Source of the DNA: Candidatus Harrisonbacteria bacterium
GTDB taxonomy: Bacteria; Patescibacteriota; Minisyncoccia; UBA6257; WO2-44-18
NCBI GenBank assembly: GCA_016182295.1
Contig: JACOXP010000007.1
Location: 11,457-75,456 of the forward strand
Direction of reading: 5' to 3'
DNA: 64,000 nucleotides
The position numbers were made by a program, and so were the translations under genes. Under the pieces are notes generated by a model. The model ran no database searches. It was not told the DNA's origin and saw only the letters and a list, made by a program, of their open reading frames with translations. This document shows positions 13,730-58,294 of this stretch, piece by piece; position 1 is the first letter of the stretch, and each line of letters opens with the position of its first letter.

Positions 13730-14398
13730 ATGCCAATACATCGAACAAAAAATGAAAATTTCTTTAAGAAGTGGTCGCCGAAAATGGCATACGTGTTGGG
13801 TTATACATGCGCGGATGGAGCTTTAACTGTTGGTAAGCGGGGAAACAAGTTTTTGGATTTCACTTCTGTGGACGAAAGTCTTATACAAACCGTTCGCGCG
13901 ACACTCGACTCTAATCATAAAATAAACCGTAAAACCAGAAAGGAAAATTGGCGCCCGGCTTACAGATTACAAATCGGCAGCAAGACTATGTTTGACGATT
14001 TGGGAAAATTGGGATTGACAACCAAAAAAGCAAAACGCTTAGTTTATCCGGATGTTCCCAAAAAGTACTTCGCGGACTTTGTTAGAGGATATTTCGACGG
14101 CGATGGACACGTTAGCCACGGCGCGTATAAAAGGAAGGGTGGAAATGGGGTAAAACAAGTTCTGCTTTCGGGTTTGACGTCGAGCACCAAAAGTTTTTTA
14201 GAAAAACTTAGAAATGATTTAACAAAATTGGGTATTGTGAGTGGTGGTACTCTGTATTACAAAAAGGGGCACCGACTTACATTCTCAATTAACGATAGTT
14301 TTGGTCTATACGAATTCCTTTACAAAAACGCGGGGTATGGCTTATACTTACAAAGGAAAAAGAGAGTTTTCGAGAAATTTTTTAGAATGCGGGCGTAG
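13730..14398 (+). CDS. LAGLIDADG homing endonuclease with two motifs, free-standing
   Basis: Two dodecapeptide motifs: YVLGYTCADGAL and FVRGYFDGDGHV. The stop codon lies inside the first 10 nt of the downstream tRNA-Asp. Confidence 0.8.
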   Translation: MPIHRTKNENFFKKWSPKMAYVLGYTCADGALTVGKRGNKFLDFTSVDESLIQTVRATLDSNHKINRKTRKENWRPAYRLQIGSKTMFDDLGKLGLTTKKAKRLVYPDVPKKYFADFVRGYFDGDGHVSHGAYKRKGGNGVKQVLLSGLTSSTKSFLEKLRNDLTKLGIVSGGTLYYKKGHRLTFSINDSFGLYEFLYKNAGYGLYLQRKKRVFEKFFRMRA

Positions 14399-26517: not shown

Positions 26518-26535
26518 TCGGGGTTTTTATTTTTG
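26502..26535. terminator. Rho-independent terminator
   Basis: ccccgac-gcaaactagt-cggggttttt. Confidence 0.55.
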
Positions 26536-26551
26536 CGGAGGGTGTAGGAGT
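26525..26551. repeat. Direct repeat copy of the tRNA-Ser(TGA) 3-prime end (27 nt)
   Basis: ttttatttttgcggagggtgtaggagt is identical to 26746..26772. Confidence 0.8.
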
Positions 26552-26640
26552 TTCGCTTCGCTCCGTGGCTGCCGCCCGGAGCTCGCCGAACCATAACGCC
26601 GCACCCCGACCCCCACACTGGACACCTTTGGGTTTCCAGC

Positions 26641-26674
26641 GCCCAAGTGGTCTGACGCGTCAGACCACTTGGGC
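26641..26674. repeat. Perfect 34-nt palindrome
   Basis: gcccaagtggtctgacg|cgtcagaccacttgggc lies in the GC-rich insert. Confidence 0.8.
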
Positions 26675-26716
26675 TGCCTTCCAACACGGGGTGCAGCTCG
26701 GTCCGACTCCCCACCA

Positions 26717-26755
26717 GAAAAATAAAACATGCCACTTGCGGCATGTTTTATTTTT
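26717..26755. terminator. Bidirectional terminator-like hairpin abutting the tRNA 3-prime end
   Basis: aaaaataaaacatgcc-acttgc-ggcatgttttattttt. Confidence 0.5.
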
Positions 26756-26756
26756 G

Positions 26757-26838
26757 CGGAGGGTGTAGGAGTCGAACCTACTAGGGCTTGCGCCCATCCG
26801 CTTTCAAGGCGGACGCATTACCGTTCTGCCAACCCTCC
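26757..26838 (-). tRNA. tRNA-Ser (anticodon TGA)
   Basis: Reverse complement is GGAGGGT...anticodon loop CTTGAAA...long variable arm...GGTTCGACTCCTACACCCTCCG. Confidence 0.85.
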
Positions 26839-29615: not shown

Positions 29616-29709
29616 TTTTATGTATAAAATTTTATTTATCGACCTCAAATAACGCCGTATTTGATTATAGAGCTAGTATAGCATATTGTAAGAATAAATT
29701 AAAGAGAAA

Positions 29710-29781
29710 GCCCTCGTAGTTCAATGGATAGAACAACTCCGTCCTAAGGAGTGGATGACTGTTCGATTCAGTCCGAGGGCA
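29710..29781 (+). tRNA. tRNA-Arg (anticodon CCT)
   Basis: GCCCTCG acceptor, anticodon stem ACTCC/GGAGT, loop GTCCTAA. Confidence 0.8.
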
Positions 29782-29830
29782 CAAAATCCGGTTTACAGAC
29801 ACTAAAAACTGGCTTAAACTGCAAGCCTAA

Positions 29831-29901
29831 GGGCCTATAGTAAAGTGGCATTACGCCTCCATGGCATGGAGGAGGTCGGGGTTCGATTCCCCGTAGGTCC
29901 A
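29831..29901 (+). tRNA. tRNA-Ala (anticodon GGC)
   Basis: GGGCCTA acceptor with G3:U70, anticodon loop ATGGCAT, T-arm CGGGGTTCGATTCCCCG. Confidence 0.8.
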
Positions 29902-30105
29902 CCGATTTGGGAGAACTCCCACATTATCCAGTCTTGTTGACCTAGAATTCGGCTTGTTATTTGTTTTTAAACCCCAACAACTGGCGATAATCACGAATCG
30001 TTGCTTCATTTCGTACTGAAGTTCGTCAAACTTTTTATCAACATCACCAAAACCTCGCTGAACCATACCAGCCAATCCTTCTAAAGTCATTTCCCCTTTT
30101 GCCAT
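29851..30105 (-). pseudogene. Small ORF whose 3-prime end reads through tRNA-Ala(GGC); possibly a truncated gene
   Basis: The N-terminal 40 aa (MAKGEMTLEGLAGMVQRGFGDVDKKFDELQYEMKQRFVII) look protein-like. The remainder is antisense tRNA sequence. An inverted-repeat operator lies just upstream. Confidence 0.25.
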
Positions 30106-30114
30106 GTTTGCATT

Positions 30115-30141
30115 ATATCACAACTAGTAGAATGTGATATT
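30115..30141. promoter_or_regulatory. Inverted repeat atatcaca-N11-tgtgatat, candidate operator in the promoter of the 29851..30105 ORF
   Basis: Perfect 8-bp arms immediately upstream of the start codon at 30105. Confidence 0.35.
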
Positions 30142-30190
30142 AAAAGCCCCCGCTGAATAAGGTTTGCGGGGACTGCTGAGTTAAAACAAC

Positions 30191-30553
30191 TTAGATTTCC
30201 TTCTTTGATTTTTCGAAGAGCGGAGGAAAATGGAACGTTTCTTTTTCCGAGAGTACTCGCACAGTTTCTGCTTCGCTGCATATTAATGGTTTCAAATAAA
30301 CAGAGGATCCAACCTTCCCATTGACAGCTTCCCACGCTATTAAAGTCCCATCGTAAAACGTTTTGACTTTTTTTAAAAAGTCATTGAGTATTTCTTGAAA
30401 AGAACTATCACGTATCGACCCGCACAATGGGATACTAATTGGATATTTGCTGCAATAAGCGTAGAGCGACTCTTCTGACCGTCCATCATAGCCGTCCCGG
30501 TATCGTACGCGAAGATACCAGTAGTCCCTGCCATCGTCAAGACGAATACGCAT
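30191..30553 (-). CDS. Hypothetical protein
   Basis: Start trimmed to MRIRLDDGRDYWY, which is preceded by a perfect Shine-Dalgarno TAAGGAGGTG. A terminator hairpin lies downstream at 30143..30178. Confidence 0.5.
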   Translation of the reverse strand: MRIRLDDGRDYWYLRVRYRDGYDGRSEESLYAYCSKYPISIPLCGSIRDSSFQEILNDFLKKVKTFYDGTLIAWEAVNGKVGSSVYLKPLICSEAETVRVLSEKETFHFPPLFEKSKKEI

Positions 30554-30795
30554 AGGACACCTCCTTAAAATGTGCAAAAGTGCTTTCCGGGGCATTATAA
30601 TACCTAGGTTATGATATGTAAAGCGTGACACCTCCGTCATACTTGAGATGAGGACCACACCTTAAATTATCTTTTATTTCAACGACTAAAATTCGTCCTA
30701 CCGTAAGAGATTTAGAACTTTTTGAAACCGTTTGATTTCGGCGGTGTTTTGATGTATCATTGTGAAAACTAAAAGAATAAGAAGGGGTGAATGTC

Positions 30796-31794
30796 ATGCA
30801 AAAAATAGTTAGGCTAGGCTTTGTCGGATGTGGAAAGCATGCAACACGGGGGCACGCGTATAACGCGCTTGCGCTTCCGGATATTTTTTCCATCACCGCT
30901 GCTTACGATACGAATCGCGAAGCACTTTCAAAATTTTGTAGTATTTCTTCCACTATAAGAGCAATGGGATCCGCGGATGAAGTCATTAAAAGTTTTGATG
31001 TAGATGCCGTTGTCATAGCAACGCCGCACGAGTTTCATCTCGACTTAATGCACAAGGCGGTAAAGGCAAAAAAACATACACTCTGCGAAAAACCGCTTTG
31101 GGTTGGAGACCACACCAAAGAAGTGAGCGGTATTCTGGATTCTGCGCAACAAAAAGGCCTTGTTTTTACAAGTTGTCACCTGCGACGATTTGCGGCAGAG
31201 TTTATGCGTCTCCACGACCTTATTCCGGAACTTAAATTTCTTGACGCTCTCCTCGAATTTAATTTCCGTTTCTTCTATCACGAACCGTCTACAGTGTGGA
31301 AAAAGGCAGAAGCTGAAAGCCTGCTATTAGACCACCTGAACCACGAAGTTGACATTTTGCATTACCTTCTCGGTTATGCGCCTCTCAAACTTGAAAAGCG
31401 CGCGGACTCTTTCGATCACTACGAGGTTGTTGGAGAAAGAGCGGATGGAATTCATATATTTTTCCTTGGAACACGAAGGTTGAAGAGTCGGATATTCAGA
31501 AACGAGCTCGAACTTGTTTTTGAAAAGGGACGCGTTGTAACACTCGCAACCCTGGAAAATGGTATCGTACATTCCACAATTATCACGACGAATTTTGACC
31601 AGCGAGAAGAATCGGTTATTCAACTTCCACATTATAGCTACGAGGATGTACTTGTGGAAGTCATGCGAAACTTTGGAGAAACGATTCTGGGGCGTGCCAC
31701 TAATTATCTCGGCACCGAAGACCTGATTACAAATAACGAATCGTGCAACGAATTGCTGTCGAGGGGTGTTTACAGCTACACTCCTACCAGATAG
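30796..31794 (+). CDS. Gfo/Idh/MocA family NAD(P)-dependent oxidoreductase
   Basis: Rossmann motif VRLGFVGCGKHA, plus ATPHEFHLDLMHKAVKAKKHTLCEKPL. Confidence 0.75.
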   Translation: MQKIVRLGFVGCGKHATRGHAYNALALPDIFSITAAYDTNREALSKFCSISSTIRAMGSADEVIKSFDVDAVVIATPHEFHLDLMHKAVKAKKHTLCEKPLWVGDHTKEVSGILDSAQQKGLVFTSCHLRRFAAEFMRLHDLIPELKFLDALLEFNFRFFYHEPSTVWKKAEAESLLLDHLNHEVDILHYLLGYAPLKLEKRADSFDHYEVVGERADGIHIFFLGTRRLKSRIFRNELELVFEKGRVVTLATLENGIVHSTIITTNFDQREESVIQLPHYSYEDVLVEVMRNFGETILGRATNYLGTEDLITNNESCNELLSRGVYSYTPTR

Positions 31795-31936
31795 CTTTCG
31801 TTCGTATGTCAAAACTGGCTTTTTGTTTGAAGTGTGTTAGTTTACCAAAAATTTTAGATGTTGCTGATCAAAGCTGCGAATGACTTAACATTCGGCAGAA
31901 ATTCGGCTATGCTGGTTGATATAGGAGGAGATTGAA

Positions 31937-32056
31937 ATGAATAAATTGGTAGTAAAAAGAAAAGATTTGGTTTTAGTTGGAGCTGTGCTCCTACCGATGA
32001 TAGTAGCAACGATTATGTATATGCTGTTACCGGGGGAAGAAGCAAAGGAGTTCCTG
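31937..32056 (+). CDS. Candidate 39-aa membrane peptide
   Basis: GGAGGAG Shine-Dalgarno 6 nt before the ATG. MNKLVVKRKDLVLVGAVLLPMIVATIMYMLLPGEEQRSS. Below the ORF-track size cutoff. Confidence 0.25.
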
Positions 32057-32132
32057 AAGTTCATTACCATTCCATTCGGAAAGTAATAGATGTCGAAAAT
32101 CGACAGGACGAGATTTTTTTGAGCTTGAGTCA

Positions 32133-32165
32133 AACCCCGATCAATTGATCGGGGTTTTTATTTTT
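32133..32165. terminator. Rho-independent terminator
   Basis: aaccccgatc-aatt-gatcggggttttt. Confidence 0.6.
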
Positions 32166-32284
32166 GAGATCAGGGCAACAGCACATGACAACCTCGAATT
32201 ACGAATAAATAAATGTAAAAAAAACTGGCCACGCGGTTGGCCAGGTTTCCAGAAATTAAAATGGTGTTATAAAATCACGTAGGT

Positions 32285-32500
32285 TCAAGCTGGTTTTTCC
32301 GAATCATCAGGCAATTCAAGATCTATTTGATTCAATAGGGCGTTGATCTCGACTATCCTATTGTGTCTACGTTTCTTCTCTTCGCCTGAGTATTTCTCAA
32401 TATCAAGAGCGAGAAGCGCCATTTCTTCGGTCAATTTCGAGATGCGGTCTAGCACCGCCGCTTCCCTGATAAGTTCCAAGCGTTCCTCGTTGGTCAGCAT
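32285..32500 (-). CDS. Hypothetical small coiled-coil protein
   Basis: 71 aa with a GGAGGAA Shine-Dalgarno upstream. Terminator at 32226..32256. Confidence 0.5.
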   Translation of the reverse strand: MLTNEERLELIREAAVLDRISKLTEEMALLALDIEKYSGEEKKRRHNRIVEINALLNQIDLELPDDSEKPA

Positions 32501-32829
32501 GATTCTTTCATTCCTCCACGTAATTACTATTAAAGAACATTGCCATTCTATAATTAGTAAACGCAGGCGTCAATTCTCGAAGTGACGACCTTTGGAAGTC
32601 CTCGTCTCTGGATTGACTCATTGACCCGTCCATAAAATTCCAGAGGCGAGAACTGGAAATTCTCGATCAAGGTGTACCAGTGGGAGAAAACGATGTTGGG
32701 TTGGGCCATGCGTTAGTTCCCCATCATTTTTGCCACCCACCAGATGGTGTGGGATCCCAGAGACCGCTTAGAAACAAAAGCAATTAGGCCAGTGTTCTAT
32801 AAGATAGTGCATTTCAAGAAGGAGGTATT

Positions 32830-33024
32830 GTGATCGAATATTTGGGCTTACCATTAGAGATTGAGTACCTAGTACAGTTTGTGCTAATGTTTACGAGTTT
32901 CGGTTTCTTTCTTTTGTCTGTGTTCGTTTCTAATGAGCGCTTGAGGCTCCGATACGCCTTTACAACATTACTGTTGATAGTCATAACCGTCCTTCTCTTT
33001 GGCGCTCCGCCCTTCTTTAGCTAG
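32830..33024 (+). CDS. Small 2-TM membrane protein
   Basis: AAGGAGGT Shine-Dalgarno and a GTG start; hydrophobic 64 aa. Confidence 0.4.
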   Translation: MIEYLGLPLEIEYLVQFVLMFTSFGFFLLSVFVSNERLRLRYAFTTLLLIVITVLLFGAPPFFS

Positions 33025-33032
33025 GGCGGAGT

Positions 33033-33077
33033 TTTTCTTTCTCTCCTTTTTTTAACGCAAGACTAATTTGAGATGAA
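33033..33077. repeat. 45-nt direct repeat, copy 1 (ttttctttctctcctttttttaacgcaagactaatttgagatgaa)
   Basis: Identical to 34853..34897. Confidence 0.85.
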
Positions 33078-33254
33078 CTAGGGAAACGATTAAAACTAGA
33101 AATGTAAATAAAACGAGAAAGCATTTCATTAGACAATGATAGTGCCTTTCGTTAATAACTAAAACCGAGGGTTCATTTACCCTCGGTTAGGAAAGTCGCG
33201 TGGACAGCATCTGCCCACTTACAAGAATCTAACACAAGCGATTGGGCAAGTTAT

Positions 33255-33542
33255 TTGGGCTTAAGGAGTGGTGCATATGGATGTTGCCTTGGGGTATTGA
33301 GCGGTTTAGTATTACTTGTTATTCATTGGACTAGGAAATATGTCCCTAGCACAAGACCTGAACTTGGCAACAAGTATTTCAGCGTCGCGTACATCTATGT
33401 CGGTATTATGTTCTTACTGCTCGTAGGTTATTTCTTCCGCTGGGCATCCAATAGCACCTGGTACCGTATCGCTAAACGTGAGTGGGCTTATGCGTTGAGT
33501 AACGAACGTGGTGGCGAAGCCGAGAAGAAACCTAGGAAGTAA
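33255..33542 (+). CDS. Hypothetical small membrane protein; start uncertain
   Basis: 95-aa ORF with hydrophobic segments. No clean ATG with a Shine-Dalgarno. Confidence 0.3.
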   Translation: MGLRSGAYGCCLGVLSGLVLLVIHWTRKYVPSTRPELGNKYFSVAYIYVGIMFLLLVGYFFRWASNSTWYRIAKREWAYALSNERGGEAEKKPRK

Positions 33543-33612
33543 AAGACTTGCGTCACCGGTCATGGCACACATTATAAAAAAAGAGGCCTTAAGGCCTCTT
33601 CGTGTTGTATGA

Positions 33613-33900
33613 TTACCTAATTTCCAATACATAGAGCATCGAGAGTAGCGTGATAGATATTATCGTAAAACAGACGCCGTAAAATTCCCAAGCAGAGAGA
33701 TATCCATAGGAGGCGCTCTCTGGGTAATAGTTTGGAAAGGCGGGTAGAACCATTCCCGTGGCCATGCCCAGTAGTGCCTCCTGGGAGATAATAAATACTC
33801 CCACTGGTTGCAGATTAGGGAACTGTCGGGAGAAACCTCTGAAGACAAGATACGAAAGCACGAGAATCGAAGACGCAGTCAGGAACCACCATAATTCCAT
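33613..33900 (-). CDS. Hypothetical 3-TM membrane protein
   Basis: Start trimmed to MELWWFL, which is preceded by AAAGGAGGAA. Terminator at 33572..33600. Confidence 0.5.
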   Translation of the reverse strand: MELWWFLTASSILVLSYLVFRGFSRQFPNLQPVGVFIISQEALLGMATGMVLPAFPNYYPESASYGYLSAWEFYGVCFTIISITLLSMLYVLEIR

Positions 33901-34423
33901 ATTTCCTCCTTTCTTGAAAACGGTGGTCGGGCGGGAATGTAACAAACAATGATTATGAAATGCTCCCTCCGTGTTCTAGTTAAGTAACGACGTTCTCGGT
34001 GGCGGTACAGCTGTATCGCCAAATGGTGTGTTAAATCTGAGTCTCAAGCTCAGCGAAAGTGCTGATTCGTTTATACAACGAAGCCATGAAGTTTGTCAAG
34101 AGCCTGTCTGCTAGATTCAACTCTGAAGTGCAACACTCACTACTTCTAACGGGGAGAGATTTCAGGGGTTCACCCGCCGCGGCGTGCGGCTAGCGAACCC
34201 GACTGCCATTCGGCAGCTTGCCGACACCCTCGCCTCGGTCTGCGAACTGATCGAGGGGCAGGCTGGGATCGAGTCGGCGTAAGACAAGTCACCCATCACT
34301 TCGGTATCTCACTTCACCCATGGGAGGGACACCCTGCCTGCCTGGAGAGTGTCCCTCTCCACTTCCGTGGACGGACTAACCACAGATTTACGCTTTCCTT
34401 CTTCATGTGATACATTAATCACA

Positions 34424-34789
34424 ATGACTCGTAAGCCGTTGATAATATTTGGAATGATTCTTGTAATCCTTATTCTTATTGTAGTAGTACGTTTTTATAT
34501 TTATATTAACTCGCCCCTAACGACGATGACGGTAATGTTTAATCAAGATGTAAGTTATTTCCGTGCATGGACGGTAATACTCAGTCTGGGCCCAGCAATA
34601 AACCTTGCTAGCGTGATGTCGCCATTAGCTTCGTTCCCTCCATCGGGGGAGCACTTCGAAAAATACCGATATTTTATGCTTACTGTTCGGATCAAGGATG
34701 TCACAAACTTAGAAACGCAGTTGAGCAAGAATCCATTGGTGTCCAGCGTAAATACGTCACAGCTTCCTCTTTTACTACCAGTGTTCTAA
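34424..34789 (+). CDS. Hypothetical membrane-anchored protein
   Basis: ORF 34349..34789. A start at MTRKPLIIFGMILVILILIVVV is likely. Confidence 0.4.
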   Translation: MTRKPLIIFGMILVILILIVVVRFYIYINSPLTTMTVMFNQDVSYFRAWTVILSLGPAINLASVMSPLASFPPSGEHFEKYRYFMLTVRIKDVTNLETQLSKNPLVSSVNTSQLPLLLPVF

Positions 34790-34852
34790 TAATGCCTGAT
34801 GTTATGAACTGGACAGAACAGGACATTTAAAGATATGTCAATTAAGGCGGGC

Positions 34853-34897
34853 TTTTCTTTCTCTCCTTTTTTTAACGCAAGACTAATTTGAGATGAA
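34853..34897. repeat. 45-nt direct repeat, copy 2
   Basis: Identical to 33033..33077. Confidence 0.85.
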
Positions 34898-34914
34898 TTA
34901 TGATAAATGACCAA

Positions 34915-34975
34915 AAAAAAGGGCCGCGAGCTTTTCCCGTGTGCGTACACGGAGCTCGCGGGCCCTGTTGAGTGG
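34915..34975. terminator. Strong GC-rich hairpin terminator for the minus-strand two-gene membrane operon
   Basis: aaaaaaaa-gggccgcgagc...gctcgcgggccc. On the minus strand it is followed by a T8 run. Confidence 0.6.
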
Positions 34976-34998
34976 TGGAAATCACCACGCTGAATTTA

Positions 34999-35217
34999 TC
35001 AAAGGGATCTGACTTGCTTCCTCCTGCGAAAGAGACGAACCACAAAGAAGATGAGAATCATGATGAAGTAAAAGGCAATCGTTAGATAGACCCCAGTTAA
35101 TCCAACTGTGAACCATGATATCAATATAAATGCGGAGCAAAGGATGCTAACTATACCCAAATAAGAAAAGAATGAGTGGCCCGGCCTTAGAGAAGATGCC
35201 TGCTCCTTTTTTATCAT
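34999..35217 (-). CDS. Small 2-TM membrane protein
   Basis: 72 aa. Its ATGA overlaps the upstream gene. Confidence 0.45.
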   Translation of the reverse strand: MIKKEQASSLRPGHSFFSYLGIVSILCSAFILISWFTVGLTGVYLTIAFYFIMILIFFVVRLFRRRKQVRSL

Positions 35218-35651
35218 TTCTCGCTCCTGACCGTCAGCTCATTTCTCTGACGCATCTCCTCGTGACAGACAAGTAGTACTGCTAATGCCAGAAAAGCTAG
35301 CCAGATGGCCATTGAGAACGAAAACAGGCGTATTGAGCCGCTCTCAAAAAGGAGCAGTTCAAGTGTTTCCTTGGGACGGTCGATTGGCCAGAAGTAAGGT
35401 ATGCTGCTAAGGAAGACAAAGGTTCCAAGGAATGGAAGCAGAAGGGTGGCAGCTAGGGTTTCTGCGTCCGTGCGGCCGTTGCGCAGGTAAACGAACGCCA
35501 CGGTACAGGCGAATGTCAAGGTGGTCATGACAACCCCTAGATAGAACCAGAACATGGTATGCCCTCCAAAGAATAGAATCCAACAAAAAAGCCATTCCCC
35601 AAGGCCCCGTCGGGCGGCGAAGAATGACTTGATAAAGTTGTAAAAGTTCAA
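35214..35651 (-). CDS. Hypothetical polytopic membrane protein
   Basis: 145 aa with 4 TM segments. Confidence 0.45.
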   Translation of the reverse strand: MNFYNFIKSFFAARRGLGEWLFCWILFFGGHTMFWFYLGVVMTTLTFACTVAFVYLRNGRTDAETLAATLLLPFLGTFVFLSSIPYFWPIDRPKETLELLLFESGSIRLFSFSMAIWLAFLALAVLLVCHEEMRQRNELTVRSEK

Positions 35652-35853
35652 AGCAATGGTAACATGTCTTGCTTTTTCCTGCTAGTGTCAGCCGCCTGCC
35701 GGAATTCTGCCCATGGTAATACAAAAGCTTAGAATTTATTTTTAATCCTGATAACTGGCGACTGTGGGTTTGATTGAATAAGTGCCTTGTGCTATCATTG
35801 CTTCGAATCGGGTTGGTAAGTTGATATGAAACGCTCTTTGAAAGGAATAAGTG

Positions 35854-36360
35854 ATGAAAAAAACCGACTACCCCGTTCCGACGATTTTCAATGTCCGAGG
35901 AATCAGGGCTCGCGGCCCCTGGAAAACCAAGTCCAGCGGAAAGCTCAATGTGTTATTCGCAATGCCTCTGGCCGAAGTGCGAGACCGATTCTTGCACTAC
36001 CGAGATACCGAGATTTCCAAAATACCAAACGACATTTGCGGACTCCGGGCTTACACCGTTAACGATTTATCAAAGGGAAAAATTGGCGGCACCGAATGGC
36101 ATAGGATCCGCGAAGAAATAGTTTTTACCATTAATGGGTTGGTGCAATGGACTTGCGTGGATCTCTTTGGCGCTCGACGCGATTTTATTGTCAGTGTAGG
36201 CAATGGGATCTGGATACCGCCGTTTATTCTCCACACTTACGAAGTGTTGGAGAAAAATAGCAGGCTCCTGGTTATCGCGAACACCCTTTTTGATCCTGAT
36301 GATCACAGAACCCACGATACTTACTCACCAAAAAAGTTCCGTGAACTGATGGCGAAGTAA
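35854..36360 (+). CDS. Cupin-fold protein; possibly sugar ketoisomerase/epimerase-like
   Basis: GGTEWHRIREEIVFTINGLVQWTC...IPPFILHTYE is consistent with a cupin beta-barrel that has metal-binding His residues. Terminator at 36362..36398. Confidence 0.5.
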   Translation: MKKTDYPVPTIFNVRGIRARGPWKTKSSGKLNVLFAMPLAEVRDRFLHYRDTEISKIPNDICGLRAYTVNDLSKGKIGGTEWHRIREEIVFTINGLVQWTCVDLFGARRDFIVSVGNGIWIPPFILHTYEVLEKNSRLLVIANTLFDPDDHRTHDTYSPKKFRELMAK

Positions 36361-36446
36361 CGATAGCCGTCATCGCAAGATGACGGCTTTTTTTATAAAT
36401 CAAAAATCCCCGCCTCACAATCGGGGATTTTTGATTCAAGAGTATA

Positions 36447-36959
36447 TTACGTTTGCCTTGGTTCGGTTTCGTTTAAGATCGTGTCAGCCGCGACGTTGGG
36501 CTCGGCTTTCATCGCTCCTCGGAACAGCCAAATCATTCCGGCAACCACAGCCGCTGCTATCAACAATTGCGCTATCGGCAGTCGAACGGCGTTGCTTCCC
36601 CCCGTCGATTCCAAAAGATTTGCCGACTCCACTTCAAAATTCGGCGCGATTCCATCCGGATCCGCGACTACAAACTGGGGTTGCGTGGCTACTCCGTCCA
36701 ATTTCGCGAGTGTCAGATTAATCCCGGAAAGATTGGCGCTCATCGCCCCAAGAGCAGTGTTGACGGCTGTAGCCTGGGAAACGTCAAGGTTAGCAAGCGT
36801 TGTATCCAGTTGATTCAAAACCATCTGCAGCGCGTCCAAGGTCTGTTTCAAAATCACCAAGTTTTCGTCTAATTCCACGGCTTGCGCCGGTTTCGCTACC
36901 GCAAAAACAGCAAATCCCAAAAGAACACCAAACAAACAGGCAAAGATTTTTTTACCCAT
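36447..36959 (-). CDS. Secreted coiled-coil protein with a C-terminal TM anchor
   Basis: Signal peptide MGKKIFACLFGVLLGFAVFAVAKPAQA, Leu/Ala-rich heptads, and C-terminal IAQLLIAAAVVAGMIWLF. Confidence 0.5.
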   Translation of the reverse strand: MGKKIFACLFGVLLGFAVFAVAKPAQAVELDENLVILKQTLDALQMVLNQLDTTLANLDVSQATAVNTALGAMSANLSGINLTLAKLDGVATQPQFVVADPDGIAPNFEVESANLLESTGGSNAVRLPIAQLLIAAAVVAGMIWLFRGAMKAEPNVAADTILNETEPRQT

Positions 36960-38790: not shown

Positions 38791-39462
38791 GTGATTATTA
38801 ATTCTCTTTATAAAGATGCGCAAGCATTGAGAGATGCTGGCTATTCATATAATATGATCAGCGAAGAACTAGGAATAGCTAAAAGCACCCTTAGTAATTG
38901 GTTTAAAGATAGACCATTTAAGCCCAATAGTGCGGTAATAAAAAGAATTCAGCTTGGGCCAATGAAGAGCGCGGAGAAAAAACATAATAAGAAAGTGTCA
39001 GAAATAGAATATTTTAATCAACTCGGCATTCAAGAAGTCGGGTCTTTGACTCAAAGAGATCTTTGGTTGTTGGGACTTGGTTTATATATCGGAGAAGGAA
39101 CAAAATCGCACGAAATGATCAGAATTATCAATGCCAATCCCGCTGTTATTAAATTAGCTATAAAATGGTTTAAAGAAGTTTGTGGCTTATCTAACGAAAA
39201 TATTACTATTGCAATACATTTATATCCAGATAATAACGTAAAGCAGTGTCTTAATTTCTGGCATAACATAACCGGACTACCAAGAAACAACTTCAGGAAA
39301 ACCCAAATAGATCGCAGGACTAATAAATTAAGGATTAAAAATAAGAAACTTCCCTACGGTACAGCCAACCTTAGTATTATTAGTCGAGGTAATGTTGATA
39401 AAGGCGTTCGCCTTTGTCGACGTATACATGGATGGATGAATGGAGTATTATCACAAGCATGA
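38791..39462 (+). CDS. HTH-containing putative LAGLIDADG-like (single-motif) endonuclease
   Basis: N-terminal HTH ISEELGIAKSTLSNWFK, then LWLLGLGLYIGEGTK, which resembles a LAGLIDADG dodecapeptide. Stop lies 1 nt before tRNA-Gly. Confidence 0.45.
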   Translation: MIINSLYKDAQALRDAGYSYNMISEELGIAKSTLSNWFKDRPFKPNSAVIKRIQLGPMKSAEKKHNKKVSEIEYFNQLGIQEVGSLTQRDLWLLGLGLYIGEGTKSHEMIRIINANPAVIKLAIKWFKEVCGLSNENITIAIHLYPDNNVKQCLNFWHNITGLPRNNFRKTQIDRRTNKLRIKNKKLPYGTANLSIISRGNVDKGVRLCRRIHGWMNGVLSQA

Positions 39463-46260: not shown

Positions 46261-46286
46261 GGGCATCGTGGACGATGTTAGAACTG
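46261..46286. promoter_or_regulatory. Shared 26-nt motif with an internal inverted repeat (gggcatcgtggacgatgttagaactg) upstream of the RelE-type TA operon
   Basis: Same 26-mer at 47562..47587 upstream of the Phd/Doc operon. catcgt-gg-acgatg is an inverted repeat. Confidence 0.6.
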
Positions 46287-46416
46287 TGTTTCAACGGCAA
46301 ACAAAGTTTGTTTATATACCTTTGGCTACCCTAATGCGTGAACACCATACTTCTTTGGCTTGCGTTAGTTTTGGAAGCCTGATAATATGGGGGCGGCAAA
46401 TTGAAAGGAGGTCGTG

Positions 46417-46806
46417 ATGCTAAGGTGGGGTACGCTGGTGGTGGCTATGTTGGTAACTGCCGGGTGTTGCTCGCTAGAGGCAACAACGCACTCAAAGCAG
46501 TGGTTCAGGGTTTTGGTGATTAATGAAAGTAAACAAACGCTTTTCTTATACCACATCGACTACAGTTTAGAAATTAATCCTGGCGAAAAACATATCACCA
46601 AATGGATACACAATGGTAACCACGATTATTCGGCCGTTCTACGTTATCGACTTATCGATAAGGATGGCGGACAGATGGCCGAGGACGGAACTGTTATCTA
46701 CTACGTATCGGCTTTTAGATACGCTGACGATAAAGATTACTATTTAAAAATATATGACGACAATCATTGGGTAACATGGGCACTGGACAACCCCCTACAA
46801 GAATAG
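46417..46806 (+). CDS. Putative lipoprotein
   Basis: AAAGGAGGT Shine-Dalgarno. Signal peptide with lipobox LVTAGC. Terminator downstream. Confidence 0.55.
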   Translation: MLRWGTLVVAMLVTAGCCSLEATTHSKQWFRVLVINESKQTLFLYHIDYSLEINPGEKHITKWIHNGNHDYSAVLRYRLIDKDGGQMAEDGTVIYYVSAFRYADDKDYYLKIYDDNHWVTWALDNPLQE

Positions 46807-46884
46807 GGGGTTTTTATACGCCAAATTTCCGAACGAAAACCACGGCCGTAAGGCCGGGGAGTTTTATTTTTACCGAAGGGCTAC

Positions 46885-47561: not shown

Positions 47562-47587
47562 GGGCATCGTGGACGATGTTAGAACTG
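47562..47587. promoter_or_regulatory. Second copy of the 26-nt TA-promoter motif
   Basis: Identical to 46261..46286. Lies about 50 nt upstream of the phd start. Confidence 0.6.
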
Positions 47588-47670
47588 CAATTCAAAATAG
47601 AAATGCTCTTATTTATATTCCCGAACTCATTATCGTGCGCCCATAAAGCCATAAAAAATCTCGCTTGTTA

Positions 47671-53990: not shown

Positions 53991-55763
53991 TTAATTTTGC
54001 AAATTACTGATATTGTTTTTAACTTTTCCGCGAACGCGGAAAAAGAAATAAGTAAGAAACAGAAGTGACAATAGAATAATCGCCGAAAGGAAAATTGATG
54101 CCTGCGCGTAACTGACTCCCATCACGCCGAGTAAAGAGCTTGTCAAAACGGCGTTGAATGTTTTTGGATCGGACCATAAATAGCTGTTGCCTTGAGCAAC
54201 GCCGGCTTTCACCTGCCACTTGCCCGGAGGCAATCCCAGATCTTTCGCGATTGACCATTCCCCCGCTTTATCGCTTTTAACCTCAACGCTTAGCGTTTCT
54301 TCGCCGTTTTCGTTAATGAAAACCAAACTGACCGCGCTATCGGCTTCGGCGGTGCCCGACAAGTAAAAAATTTCTTCTTCCGGATAATAAACGGGCGGGG
54401 CTATTGAGATAGACGGCGGAGATGCCGCGTTGACAATGCCGGGCAATAAAAACCCTGAAAACAAAGCAATGGCCAGAAACACAGCCGTTGGCGGTTTGCG
54501 GAAAGAGTTAATTAATTTCTTCCAATCATCCCGCAGGGCGTAATAAATACGACCGCGATGCAAACGCATCAAACCCAATGAAATCGCGCCGATTAATAAA
54601 GCCAAGGATCCCAAAAAGGCCGCGACCCATTTCCAGGGAACAAGAAATCTTCCCAAATCCACTCCATCCGGGCCCACAAAACGATAAATTGGTCTTACTA
54701 TGCTTAAAGTCACGAATTCTTCTCGAAAATTACCGACTTTGTCCACTGCTTTTATAATAATATGGTATCGGCCAACGTCAAGATTGCTTAAAGCGTAAGG
54801 CGAGAATGCCTCAAAAAATAGCGATCCCTCATCCTGATCATCCTGCGTCAGATTGACGATCTTTAATTCAAAATGGTCCAACCCGGATAATTTATCAAAC
54901 GCCGCGAATTGCAGAATAATATCCTTTTGAGAAGTTCTCGCGTCGGGAACAACTTCAATGTCGAAAGATTCCGGAGGACTGACGTCTATTTTTGCGGCGA
55001 AGTGCGAAACGCCGCTCCACACGCCTTGCGCTTTTTGCCTTAAGTGCAGATACCAAATGCCGCTTTCCAAATCGGAAAATGAAACCGAATTTGCTTTCGT
55101 ATCACTAACCGCGTCGGGGAAACCCGATGAATCCTGATCAAAGGAATAACTAAAATCCTCAACCAGCGGATTTCTGTCCCAGCTTAAAATTATCGTCGAG
55201 TCGCGATTCCATTCGTTCGGATCCGGATGAGTTGATGAGAAGATTTGGGGACCCAGCGGAGCAGCCACGTTAAAATTGAAAAAGGCGGGCGCGGTCTGCC
55301 CTAAAGCATCAGTGGATGGTGATTGGCTGGTAAATACCCGCGTATTTTGCCCGAACCGGATTTCTCCGCTTCCGGGAGCAATTATCCTGAAGGTGAAAGT
55401 CAGGACGACTCCTTTCGAAACAGTCGTTCCCGGACTGGGCATATTGCCGGAGAAATAGATTCTGCCTTCACGATTGGAAAATGACGGTGGGACAATCCAG
55501 TCCTGAATTAAGGACTGGCCGATGGATGGTCCGGAAAGCTGAATTTTATCTTGGGGGAAAAAGAGTTCCACTTCCAACCCGCTAACTACCTGTTCTTTGG
55601 TGTCCAATAAAATTGAGAGGTCAAAAGTACTGCCGACAATAAACGACCCGCTGGGTGGGCTTAATAATAAAGTTGGGGAAGCCGCTCGCGCGGGATTAAT
55701 CGAGAGAAATAGAAATAGAACTGCAAATAAGAGAGAGAGAGAGAGAGGAAAAGTTTTTTTCAT
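53991..55763 (-). CDS. Cohesin-domain surface protein, paralog 1 (with an extra C-terminal module after the first TM)
   Basis: Signal peptide. LLLSPPSGSFIVGSTFDLSILLDTKEQVVSGLEVELFFPQDKIQL...FSNREGRIYFSG is a cohesin-like N-domain. Middle domain carries THPDPNEW...WYLHLRQ. Two further hydrophobic segments flank a second signal-peptide-like stretch (LPGIVNA-ASPP) and an extra ~100-aa domain. Confidence 0.65.
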   Translation of the reverse strand: MKKTFPLSLSLLFAVLFLFLSINPARAASPTLLLSPPSGSFIVGSTFDLSILLDTKEQVVSGLEVELFFPQDKIQLSGPSIGQSLIQDWIVPPSFSNREGRIYFSGNMPSPGTTVSKGVVLTFTFRIIAPGSGEIRFGQNTRVFTSQSPSTDALGQTAPAFFNFNVAAPLGPQIFSSTHPDPNEWNRDSTIILSWDRNPLVEDFSYSFDQDSSGFPDAVSDTKANSVSFSDLESGIWYLHLRQKAQGVWSGVSHFAAKIDVSPPESFDIEVVPDARTSQKDIILQFAAFDKLSGLDHFELKIVNLTQDDQDEGSLFFEAFSPYALSNLDVGRYHIIIKAVDKVGNFREEFVTLSIVRPIYRFVGPDGVDLGRFLVPWKWVAAFLGSLALLIGAISLGLMRLHRGRIYYALRDDWKKLINSFRKPPTAVFLAIALFSGFLLPGIVNAASPPSISIAPPVYYPEEEIFYLSGTAEADSAVSLVFINENGEETLSVEVKSDKAGEWSIAKDLGLPPGKWQVKAGVAQGNSYLWSDPKTFNAVLTSSLLGVMGVSYAQASIFLSAIILLSLLFLTYFFFRVRGKVKNNISNLQN

Positions 55764-55771
55764 TGTTGTGT

Positions 55772-57016
55772 TCAGCCATGATTTTTTTTCTTTTTGCCGT
55801 GAAAAGGCCTGGCTGATTTAATAATATCATTCTTAATATGATGTTTTATATGAGCGCGGTGATTTTTGTAAATCCACAAAACCATTACAAGCAAAATTAA
55901 AGCCAAACCGCCCAAAACCAGCAAAATCATTAGCTCTAAGCCGTCAGCGCCAACCAATTCATAAGCGGGATCAACGATAGTAATGGTTACTAACTGGTCC
56001 GCTCGATTCCCCGCCCGGTCAAAAGCCCTGACAATAACGTGGTATCGGCCAATGTCTAAATTCGAAAGAAAATAGGGGGAATCAACGTTAAAAAACAAAG
56101 GATCTTCAATGCTTCCCAAATTTAACGGCACTAGTTTAAACTCGTAATGATCTAGGCCGGATAAAGAATCCGCCGCGGAAAATTCTACGATTAAATTACG
56201 TTCAGCGGTACGTTTGTCCGGCGAAACCGCTACTTTAAAATCGGAAGGCGGATTTTTGTCTATTCGAATCGTGAAGTGGGAAACGCCGCCCCACACTTCT
56301 TTCACTTTTTGACGAAGATGAAAATACCAAACGCCGCTTTCCAGATCGGAAAAAGAAGCGAAAGTTTCGCTGGTTTCGCTGATAGAGTCCGGAAAACCGG
56401 AAGGGTCGTGATCCAGAGAATAACTGAACCCATCGGCTAAGGAATCTTTAACCCAAGTAAAATTCACCGTCGAATCGCGATACCAGTTTTCCAAATTGGG
56501 ATGGGTGGGGGAAACTATTTCAGGGCCGATTGACGGCGTGGGGTTTAGCGTCAGAAAAGCCGGAACGGTCTGGCCAAGAATATCGGCTGGCAAGCCATCG
56601 CCGGCGAATACCCGCGATTTTTTGCCAAATTCAATTTGAGCGCTGCCGGGCGCGATCACCCGAAAATTCAAGGTTAAAACAACGCCGTTGGAAGTCCGAA
56701 TTCCTGGGTTTTGCGTATCGCCGGACAAATAAATCCTGCCTTCGCGGTTGGAAAAAGACGGCTGGGTCGTCCAGGATTGAATTAAAGACCGACCAACCGA
56801 CGGGTTGGCAAGTTGCAGTTTATCGGGGGGGAAAAAGAGTTCCACTTCCAATCCGCTAACCACCCGTCCTTTGGTGTCCAATAAAATTGAAAGATCGAAA
56901 GTACTGCCGACAATAAACGACCCGCTGGTCGGGCTAAGCAATAAAGCCGGGGACGCCGCCCACGTCGTATTGAGAGAAAAAAAAAAGAAAAATCCTAGAA
57001 ATAAAGCATGAGCCAT
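55772..57016 (-). CDS. Cohesin-domain surface protein, paralog 2
   Basis: Same architecture: signal peptide, cohesin-like domain (LLLSPTSGSFIVGSTFDLSILLDTKGRVVSGLEVELFFPPDKLQL), conserved middle domain, C-terminal TM and basic tail. Confidence 0.65.
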   Translation of the reverse strand: MAHALFLGFFFFFSLNTTWAASPALLLSPTSGSFIVGSTFDLSILLDTKGRVVSGLEVELFFPPDKLQLANPSVGRSLIQSWTTQPSFSNREGRIYLSGDTQNPGIRTSNGVVLTLNFRVIAPGSAQIEFGKKSRVFAGDGLPADILGQTVPAFLTLNPTPSIGPEIVSPTHPNLENWYRDSTVNFTWVKDSLADGFSYSLDHDPSGFPDSISETSETFASFSDLESGVWYFHLRQKVKEVWGGVSHFTIRIDKNPPSDFKVAVSPDKRTAERNLIVEFSAADSLSGLDHYEFKLVPLNLGSIEDPLFFNVDSPYFLSNLDIGRYHVIVRAFDRAGNRADQLVTITIVDPAYELVGADGLELMILLVLGGLALILLVMVLWIYKNHRAHIKHHIKNDIIKSARPFHGKKKKNHG

Positions 57017-57022
57017 AATTCA

Positions 57023-58294
57023 TCATGACTTGTCTTCCGGTTTTTCAAAAGCGCGTTTAACTTTCCAAATATCATCGTAAATGGAGCGCTTAACATGAGT
57101 GCCGTGCTTTCCCAAAATCCGGAAAATAATTATTAACAAAATCAACGCCGGCAAACCGACGACCAGCAAGACCGCCAACCAAGGTATGAAAAATTTTCCT
57201 AAATCTACGCCGTCCGGTCCGATAAATTTATAAATAGGGGCGACTATGTTAACAGTGACTAACTTGTCTCGATAATTCCCCGCTTTGTCGAAAGCCCTGA
57301 TAATAATATGGTATCTTCCAGTATCCAGATTGGAAAGAAGATAAGGGGAGGTGATTTCAAAAAATAACGGGGTGTCAACGCTTCCTCGGCTTAGCGCAAC
57401 TAGTTTAAGCTCATAATGGTCAAGACCGGATAGCGTGTCCGTGGTAAAAAACTGCAGGAATAAATTTCGCTCGGCGGTGCGCTCGTCTGGCAAAACGGTA
57501 ATGTTGAAATCCGAAGGCGGGCCACTGTCTATTCTGAATGGAAAGTGCGAGACGCCGCCCCATACGGCTCTGACCCTCTGGCGAAGATGGAAATACCACA
57601 AACCGTCGTCAAGACTGCTGAAAGTGTTTGACGTCCTAATACCCTCGGATTCTATATCCGGAACTCCGGATGGATTCTGGTCTATGGAATAACTGAAACC
57701 GTCCGCGCCGCTGATATTTTGCCAGATAAAAGTCGGGTTGGGATCGCGATACCATTTTTCCGGATCTGGATGGCTGGGCGAAGCGATCTCTGGGCCGGCG
57801 GCGGGCGACACTGAAATGCTGTAAAAGGCCGGGGAAGCGTTTGCCAGGATATTAGTACCGAGGCCGTCGTTGGCTAAAATCCGCGTCCGGTTCCCAAAAG
57901 AAATCGTCGCCTCTCCGGGAGCAATCGCCCTAAAAGTTAAGGTTAAAACTACACCGTCGGAGGTATTGATTCCCGGCGACGGAATACCACCGACAAAACG
58001 CGCCCGTCCTTCGCTGTTGGAAAAGGTGGGGGCGGACGGCCAAACTTGAATTAATGAACGACCAATAGACGGGTTGGTAATTTGCAGTTTATCAGCCGGG
58101 AATATCAACTCTACTTCAACTAAATTGGCTGATAGCCCCTTCGTATCCAAAACAACCGAAACATTAAACGTCCCGCCTGTTAGAAAAGAACCCGAAGACG
58201 GACTAAGAGCCAAAGTCGCCGGACCGGCCGCTGGCGCCGGAATCGGCAAAATCAACACTAATAAAAATAAAGTTAAGAATAGTTTTTTAATCAT
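57023..58294 (-). CDS. Cohesin-domain surface protein, paralog 3
   Basis: LALSPSSGSFLTGGTFNVSVVLDTKGLSANLVEVELIFPADKLQI...FSNSEGRARFVGG, then a middle domain, then TM and basic tail. Confidence 0.65.
   Translation of the reverse strand: MIKKLFLTLFLLVLILPIPAPAAGPATLALSPSSGSFLTGGTFNVSVVLDTKGLSANLVEVELIFPADKLQITNPSIGRSLIQVWPSAPTFSNSEGRARFVGGIPSPGINTSDGVVLTLTFRAIAPGEATISFGNRTRILANDGLGTNILANASPAFYSISVSPAAGPEIASPSHPDPEKWYRDPNPTFIWQNISGADGFSYSIDQNPSGVPDIESEGIRTSNTFSSLDDGLWYFHLRQRVRAVWGGVSHFPFRIDSGPPSDFNITVLPDERTAERNLFLQFFTTDTLSGLDHYELKLVALSRGSVDTPLFFEITSPYLLSNLDTGRYHIIIRAFDKAGNYRDKLVTVNIVAPIYKFIGPDGVDLGKFFIPWLAVLLVVGLPALILLIIIFRILGKHGTHVKRSIYDDIWKVKRAFEKPEDKS

Follow-up and report, generated by a model that had tools for sequence, protein, structure and literature searches.

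A 1.8-kb segment bounded by direct repeats lies at positions 33033-34897 of a 64-kb stretch of contig JACOXP010000007.1 from a Candidatus Harrisonbacteria genome. This stretch, the window, was analysed at its full length, and positions are counted from its first nucleotide. It is cellular bacterial DNA that encodes LigA, BipA, a GatA-type amidase, a P-type ATPase and ThyX and carries 11 scattered tRNA genes. The FdtA-like protein encoded at 35854-36360 is identical to NCBI protein MBI2024803.1 of a Candidatus Harrisonbacteria genome assembled from groundwater metagenomes. The segment is a real, well-defined structure and most likely the scar of a small insertion, which in general terms is a known kind of event. 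What is unusual in it is a random-like, unannotated interior together with a GC-rich structured block.

The repeat, TTTTCTTTCTCTCCTTTTTTTAACGCAAGACTAATTTGAGATGAA, was found on the + strand at 33033-33077 and 34853-34897, with all 45 positions identical. A first-pass annotation had reported these perfect copies, and exact matching confirmed them, with no chance copies in shuffled sequence. When up to 3 mismatches were allowed, these two sites were the only matches in the window, as compared with 0.00 expected from 100 shuffles. The match lengthens to 48 nt with one mismatch. As an exact repeat, the 45-mer is the longest of the window, the runners-up being 31, 27 and 26 nt long. Searching the window with either half of the 45-mer (at most 3 mismatches) returned the same two sites and no third copy. 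Exact matches to its 24-nt non-repetitive half were absent from 596 Gb of species-representative genomes, from JGI metagenomes and from IMG/VR, collections outside which the remainder of this genome lies. The first-pass annotation had named a common intergenic motif as the explanation that would undo an insertion, and this objection did not hold, as no extra copies turned up in the 64 kb or, for the 24-nt half, in the genome, metagenome and viral collections. Similarity past the perfect core is weak, with agreement at 8 of 12 positions on the left (anchored P ~0.03) and at 12 of 20 on the right (P ~0.015). The first 21 nt of the 45-mer form a T-rich tract, which supplies a terminator tail at copy 1. 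The predicted folding energy of the 45-mer is -2.3 kcal/mol on the + strand (z = +0.6) and -2.8 kcal/mol on the - strand (z = +0.5). No convincing promoter was found within it on either strand, and the number of promoter-like sequences in the region equalled the shuffled expectation.

The left neighbour of the segment is o64 (32830-33024, + strand), an open reading frame (ORF) for a 64-aa two-helix membrane protein with a GTG start 7 nt past AAGGAGG. It is absent from the NCBI annotation, was not found in the searched protein collection and has a host codon-usage score of -0.09. Its terminator hairpin, CTCCGCCC...GGGCGGAG, has a 10-pair stem at 33008-33032 on the + strand, and the + strand of the surrounding 150-nt fold window (32900-33049) gave z = -5.0. 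The T-run of this hairpin opens copy 1 (33033-33077, + strand), the proposed attL-like junction. Copy 1 begins 8 nt after this orphan ORF and at its terminator T-run, not at a tRNA. On the other side, copy 2 (34853-34897, + strand), the proposed attR-like junction, begins 63 nt after the last interior ORF. It is preceded at 34843-34852 (+ strand) by TAAGGCGGGC, which aligns as a degenerate copy of the copy-1 hairpin 3' arm TAGGGCGGAG. Because TAAGGCGGGC has no 5' arm, there is no hairpin before copy 2 (fold z = +0.8). Within 19 nt of copy 2 begins a strong terminator hairpin with a T8 run (34916-34969, - strand; z = -2.4, and down to -4.2 in the window scan), which ends the gene pair o113/o72. 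These right neighbours, o72 (34999-35217) and o113 (35214-35555; MBI2024802.1, HYT03_01790), are - strand genes for small membrane proteins with non-host codon usage. Removing 33078-34897 in silico leaves a spacer of ~75 nt between the convergent terminators of o64 and o113/o72, a reconstructed arrangement that would be a normal, ordinary intergenic layout.

Between the repeats we found three small hydrophobic ORFs on both strands, at 33255-33542 (+), 33613-33900 (-) and 34349/34424-34789 (+), in agreement with the two or three listed in the first-pass annotation. The left end of the interior is occupied by two adjacent - strand hairpins (33112-33188; fold z = -4.0), each followed by a T-run in a tandem terminator-like arrangement. 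The first ORF belongs to a frameshifted small membrane-protein gene (33263-33542, + strand) with AAGGAG at 33263-33268 and an ATG at 33277, the frame of which stops after 7 codons. Lengthening the G4 run at 33291-33294 by one G would fuse this frame with the 95-aa ORF at 33255-33542 into an 88-aa product. A bidirectional terminator hairpin (33580-33601, both strands) lies between this gene and the convergent o95m (33613-33900, - strand), an orphan ORF for a 95-aa membrane protein with three predicted helices, which has a strong ribosome-binding site, AAGGAGG 5 nt ahead of its ATG. The third, o121 (34424-34789, + strand; a longer form starts at 34349), is an orphan of 121 aa with an N-terminal membrane helix and without a ribosome-binding site.

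None of the three interior ORFs is called by the NCBI pipeline. Because MBI2024801.1 (HYT03_01785, 32285-32500) and MBI2024802.1 are consecutive NCBI proteins, the 2.7 kb at 32501-35213 carry no annotation at all, neither gene, pseudogene nor RNA. Patescibacteria genomes are compact, and such a gap is out of the ordinary for them. Two short ORFs that overlap in different frames (51 aa and 41 aa; 32508-32709, - strand) look like a single small gene split by a frameshift; they lie directly upstream of the 71-aa gene in the annotation. The interior ORFs do not overlap each other and have terminators between them. Random sequence of 1,775 nt would seldom contain three ORFs as long as 95 aa or more (P ~0.006; for the 146-aa maximum, P ~0.02). 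The only database match of o95m was to itself, from Logan contigs. An exhaustive HMMER search of o121 against 1.84 billion representatives returned itself and two marginal matches, and its single-sequence AlphaFold model is weak (predicted local distance difference test score 63.5). A large-scale protein search found no homologue of the frameshift-corrected 88-aa protein, and none of the ORFs in or adjoining the segment was assigned to a Pfam, PHROGs or NCBIfam family. Reassignment of a stop codon (TGA, TAG or TAA) opened no convincing long ORF. We treat the interior ORFs as possible small membrane-protein genes that are partly decayed.

The interior also contains the ORF-poor stretch that had been pointed out in the first-pass annotation. 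It spans ~520 nt (33901-34423), has no strand assigned and includes a block at ~34100-34390 where GC content peaks at 0.60-0.65. This block consists of consecutive hairpins, the strongest at 34324-34362, and folds better on the - strand (z = -3.2) than on the + strand (z = -1.6). It had earlier been described as coding-like, a description that we do not retain: its conceptual translations gave no significant Pfam match, and a series of hairpins is the better description. Rfam searches over 32700-35300 at E <= 5 returned only terminator look-alikes and no family match, and across the window at gathering thresholds only tRNAs. The block shows no similarity to any other part of the window.

Next, we compared the composition of the interior (33078-34852, 1,775 nt) with that of same-size windows of the contig and with a simulation of independent bases. 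Its chi-squared values for di-, tri- and tetranucleotides were 3.3, 39.6 and 251.8, as against 9.4 +- 4.7, 53.3 +- 11.4 and 245.9 +- 27.4 for simulated independent bases. By contrast, the values were 42.5, 131.9 and 396.5 in the left flank and 65.3, 180.1 and 462.1 in the right flank (1,775 nt each, directly adjoining copy 1 and copy 2, respectively), with minima of 32, 129 and 378 over the 1,775-nt windows tested elsewhere in the contig. The interior is statistically indistinguishable from random independent bases, whereas the flanks are clearly non-random. All 16 dinucleotide odds ratios of the interior fall between 0.96 and 1.07; the contig has a strong signature (AA/TT 1.41, CG 1.34, TA 0.70, AC/GT 0.73). 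The Karlin delta* of the interior is 0.171 against a window mean of 0.077, a value reached by 0.2% of windows, all of them overlapping this region. The random-like statistics raised the idea that the sequence is synthetic or planted. It was rejected, as the region recurs at 100% identity in eight independent Logan contigs assembled from actual groundwater runs, and also because the long interior ORFs outnumber random expectation.

The compositional anomaly extends past the segment. Host codon-usage scores are negative for every ORF between 32554 and 35555, as compared with +0.16 to +0.45 for host genes. Maximum-scoring-segment analysis placed the non-host region at 32517-35565 under an order-3 model and at 29667-35565 under an order-2 model. 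The latter, ~6 kb long, begins near tRNA-Arg(cct) and tRNA-Ala(ggc). It includes a GFO/IDH/MocA oxidoreductase and several orphans. Both the oligonucleotide signature and the codon usage of the host are missing from it, and it probably represents a variable island close to tRNA genes. No duplicate of a tRNA 3' end, that of tRNA-Ala included, was found to bound it. The repeat-bounded unit is the most extreme part of this larger atypical tRNA-proximal region and does not form a clean island set in native DNA.

The region was also recovered in independent assemblies. Eight Logan contigs, from three to four runs among SRR12113383, -384, -420 and -430, match the window at 100% identity and cover all four repeat junctions. 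A neighbouring run of the same series is attributed to groundwater from Modesto, California (He et al. 2021, cited in bioRxiv 10.1101/2024.02.19.580942). Contigs from the left flank end at 33062, the contig that runs from the interior toward copy 2 (L004) ends at 34882, and those from the right flank end at 34868. Thus, seven of the eight end exactly 30 nt (k-1) into the repeat; another (L005) crosses the whole of copy 1 and ends at 33033, the outer edge of that copy. A genuine repeat with two copies should give this pattern of ends in a graph built at k=31. As the contigs break at the repeat, they carry no information on which flank joins which.

Relatives of the locus were sought in several collections. 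The sequence 32800-35000 had no blastn match in plasmid and phage collections, and the searchable collections held no close relative of the genome, the best matches being 76% for ThyX and 65% for the FdtA-like protein, with no common gene order. At the loci of the ThyX matches among species-representative genomes, no other protein of the window had a match. The longest contig among the FdtA-like homologues (L096) shared no gene order with the window, and the GFO-family oxidoreductase had relatives in JGI metagenomes at 23-27% only.

With a probability that we put at roughly 45%, the segment is a small, non-autonomous inserted islet, the repeats of which are the duplicated insertion site, like attL and attR. 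About 1.8 kb of foreign or decayed DNA would have entered the short spacer between the convergent terminators of o64 and o113/o72, by recombination across a 45-nt sequence common to the incoming DNA and the target, and this sequence would have been left at both ends. The recombinase, not being encoded by the segment, would have acted in trans or been lost later; otherwise, a RecA-type single crossover with a circular molecule may have done the work.

We favour insertion for the following reasons. The repeat is perfect, beyond chance and the longest in 64 kb, and the interior is random-like when the flanks are not. Excision in silico restores a compact spacer between convergent terminators. The contents look accessory or decaying, comprising orphans and a frameshift in a G run, with negative host codon scores and no annotation. 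All four junctions recur in independent Logan contigs. Finally, the segment sits in a ~6-kb non-host, tRNA-proximal region, and a second att-type duplication lies 6 kb upstream. The weak homology past the perfect core would point to related sites that recombined within a common core, since a target-site duplication should have sharp edges. What the sequence itself shows is the repeat, the flanking and interior terminators, a break in composition, genes that are orphans and in part broken, and the lack of any recombinase; the insertion as an event, its direction and any mobility of the unit at present are inferred. The proposal of a recent insertion or cassette-like unit, made in the first-pass annotation, is borne out in part. 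The compositional contrast, the restored compact spacer and the weak homology past the core agree with it; the foreign-like composition beyond the repeats does not. Duplication, proposed there as well, found no support, as no part of the interior recurs inside the segment or in its flanks.

Several observations weigh against this insertion. Because the non-host composition reaches past both copies (32517-35565), the repeats do not delimit foreign DNA from that of the host, and all 3 kb may have come in as one piece that already contained the repeat. The flank similarity beyond the 45-mer is only modestly significant. The 45-mer has neither dyad symmetry nor any other recognisable feature of a recombinase site. 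No integrase, transposase or other recombinase was detected among the ORFs of 30191-36959 with Pfam, PHROGs and NCBIfam, and the larger ORFs of the window, examined partly with Pfam and partly by eye, yielded no recognisable one either. The earlier statement that no transposase or integrase is present held up in the same searches, in and beside the segment. Furthermore, an empty site, a circular junction or a second insertion was not seen in the searchable collections, which hold no close relative.

We then weighed other explanations for the same structure. General homologous recombination, or an error of repair or replication, is a doubtful alternative. The segment would then stem from a crossover with a circular environmental fragment or from template switching at terminator hairpins, the repeat would be a by-product, and the unit would never have been mobile. 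An identity of 45 nt suffices for low-frequency RecA recombination, and a crossover of two related sequences would agree with homology that is perfect in the core and diverged on either side. The absence of a recombinase in or near the segment is consistent with such an origin, as is a content that is random-like, in part non-coding and in part broken. However, the incoming DNA must already have carried the 45-mer, which this account leaves unexplained. A RecA-type single crossover and a site-specific event driven in trans would look alike in sequence, so that no feature of the segment separates this alternative from the site-specific form of insertion.

A function of the 45-mer as an intergenic element is unlikely. 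In that case it would be, for instance, a shared 3' untranslated region, a terminator tail or a regulatory site, kept identical by selection or gene conversion, and the space between the copies would hold ordinary accessory DNA that evolves fast, with no insertion involved. Each copy does lie shortly 3' of a + strand ORF for a small membrane protein (at a distance of 8 nt from o64 and of 63 nt from o121), and the T-rich first 21 nt act as a terminator tail at copy 1. Copy 2, however, has no hairpin (z = +0.8) and cannot be the same terminator, and no convincing promoter was found on either strand. A 26-nt repeat (46261 and 47562), placed at a fixed distance upstream of two different toxin-antitoxin operons, suggests that shared regulatory repeats do exist in this genome. 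The 45-mer has no other copy in the 64 kb, and none was found in public collections, searched with the 24-nt half. Moreover, a selected motif would not usually show identity at 45 of 45 positions and then a sudden fall in similarity, and the compositional break is left unexplained. An assembly or population artefact, in which the assembler threaded into the chromosome an interior from another molecule or strain carrying the 45-mer, would suit the metagenomic source of the genome, the deviating composition of the interior and Logan contigs that break at the repeat with flank pairing unread, but it is very improbable, given that 45 nt is presumably shorter than the reads and than the larger k-mers of metagenome assemblers, so that joining should need spanning reads, that the four junction sequences recur at 100% identity across several runs, and that the flanks are themselves compositionally atypical.

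To place the inserted islet among known systems, we compared it with several classes of element. Cis-mobilizable elements (CIMEs), for example CIME19258 and CIME302 of Streptococcus thermophilus, are islets flanked by attachment (att) sites and devoid of an integrase. The segment resembles them in being short, in lying between direct repeats tens of bases long, in lacking recombination and transfer genes and in carrying accessory or decayed genes. It differs in that neither a tRNA nor a conserved housekeeping gene ends at the 45-mer and in that no cognate integrative element or integrase is known for this sequence. Judged by its layout, the segment seems most like an att-flanked, integrase-less islet of this kind, a CIME-like remnant, and we do not claim membership. 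Genomic islands of tyrosine recombinases use the 3' ends of genes, those of tRNAs among them, as integration sites and duplicate a core of ~15-60 bp. Here, too, there is a perfect repeat of typical core length right after the terminator of the target gene, with partial homology past the core, foreign-like composition and tRNA genes nearby. By contrast, the segment is only 1.8 kb long and has no integrase, its 'target gene' would be an unannotated 64-aa ORF, and its non-host composition runs beyond both repeats.

Other classes were rejected. A miniature inverted-repeat or other non-autonomous DDE transposon is likewise small and transposase-less with direct repeats at its flanks; no terminal inverted repeats pair the segment ends, a single copy is present, and the 45-nt duplication is far too long, as target-site duplications of DDE transposons are typically ~2-14 bp. 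Class C (IIC) group II introns insert right after an intrinsic terminator hairpin and create no direct repeats. The post-terminator position and the size are similar, but 32700-35300 gave no Rfam group II match at E <= 5, no reverse-transcriptase domain was found, and the direct repeats are unlike introns. An integron cassette would also be a small unit bounded by recombination sites and without its own integrase, but the 45-mer has no attC-like imperfect palindrome, and none of the larger ORFs in the window was recognised as an integron integrase. A dispersed intergenic repeat (of the repetitive extragenic palindromic type, or a shared promoter or terminator) was dismissed on the finding of only two copies in the 64 kb searched and, for the 24-nt half, of none in the genome, metagenome and viral collections, and a tandem or segmental duplication on the lack of an internal, flanking or other copy of the interior in the window.

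Taken by itself, the insert is an ordinary sort of genomic scar, and it marks a tRNA-proximal variable region. The gain and loss of DNA in the small genomes of candidate phyla radiation (CPR) bacteria are little understood, and a recombinase-less, repeat-bounded insert at a terminator would be a concrete, testable case. The orphan small membrane proteins, if real, could matter for the episymbiotic lifestyle.

A second repeat-bounded unit was noticed in the window. TTTTATTTTTGCGGAGGGTGTAGGAGT is a perfect 27-nt direct repeat at 26525-26551 and 26746-26772. Its second copy contains the last 17 nt of tRNA-Ser(tga), an att-type duplication, and its first copy begins at the T-run of the terminator of the upstream gene, as copy 1 of the 45-mer does. 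Between the copies lie 194 nt of ~68% GC, which include a perfect palindrome of 32 nt (26642-26673). Their predicted folding is very strong on both strands (+ strand, z = -8.1; - strand, z = -8.8), and Rfam gave no match. The GC-rich blocks of the two units (26552-26745 and 34100-34400) have no mutual sequence similarity. It would be highly speculative to regard 33033-34897 and the 221-nt unit at 26525-26772 as two members of a family of tiny recombinase-less cassettes of CPR bacteria. Such cassettes would insert by terminators or tRNA 3' ends, duplicate a target of 25-45 nt, carry GC-rich structured RNA modules and orphan membrane-protein genes, and be moved in trans by another enzyme.

Further features of the window were recorded in passing. 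A 34-nt direct repeat (46261-46294 and 47562-47595), the first 26 nt of which are perfect, has an inner palindrome, CATCGT..ACGATG. It lies ~45-50 nt upstream of the start codons of two - strand toxin-antitoxin operons, ParE/RelE-like (46217-45753) and MazE-Doc (47510-46885), and looks like a shared operator or module boundary. A non-host segment (46263-46810), which holds a 130-aa lipoprotein-like orphan, begins exactly at the first 34-nt copy. An ORF resembling a LAGLIDADG-type homing endonuclease (13730-14398; Pfam LAGLIDADG_3, E = 3e-16) overlaps the start of tRNA-Asp. A free-standing ORF (38791-39462) with a LAGLIDADG-like motif and only a weak helix-turn-helix Pfam match ends 1 nt before tRNA-Gly. 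Finally, 53991-58294 contains three tandem paralogous genes for secreted or membrane-anchored proteins of 590, 414 and 423 aa, repeated with a period of ~1,270 nt and ~75% identical in DNA over 300 nt.

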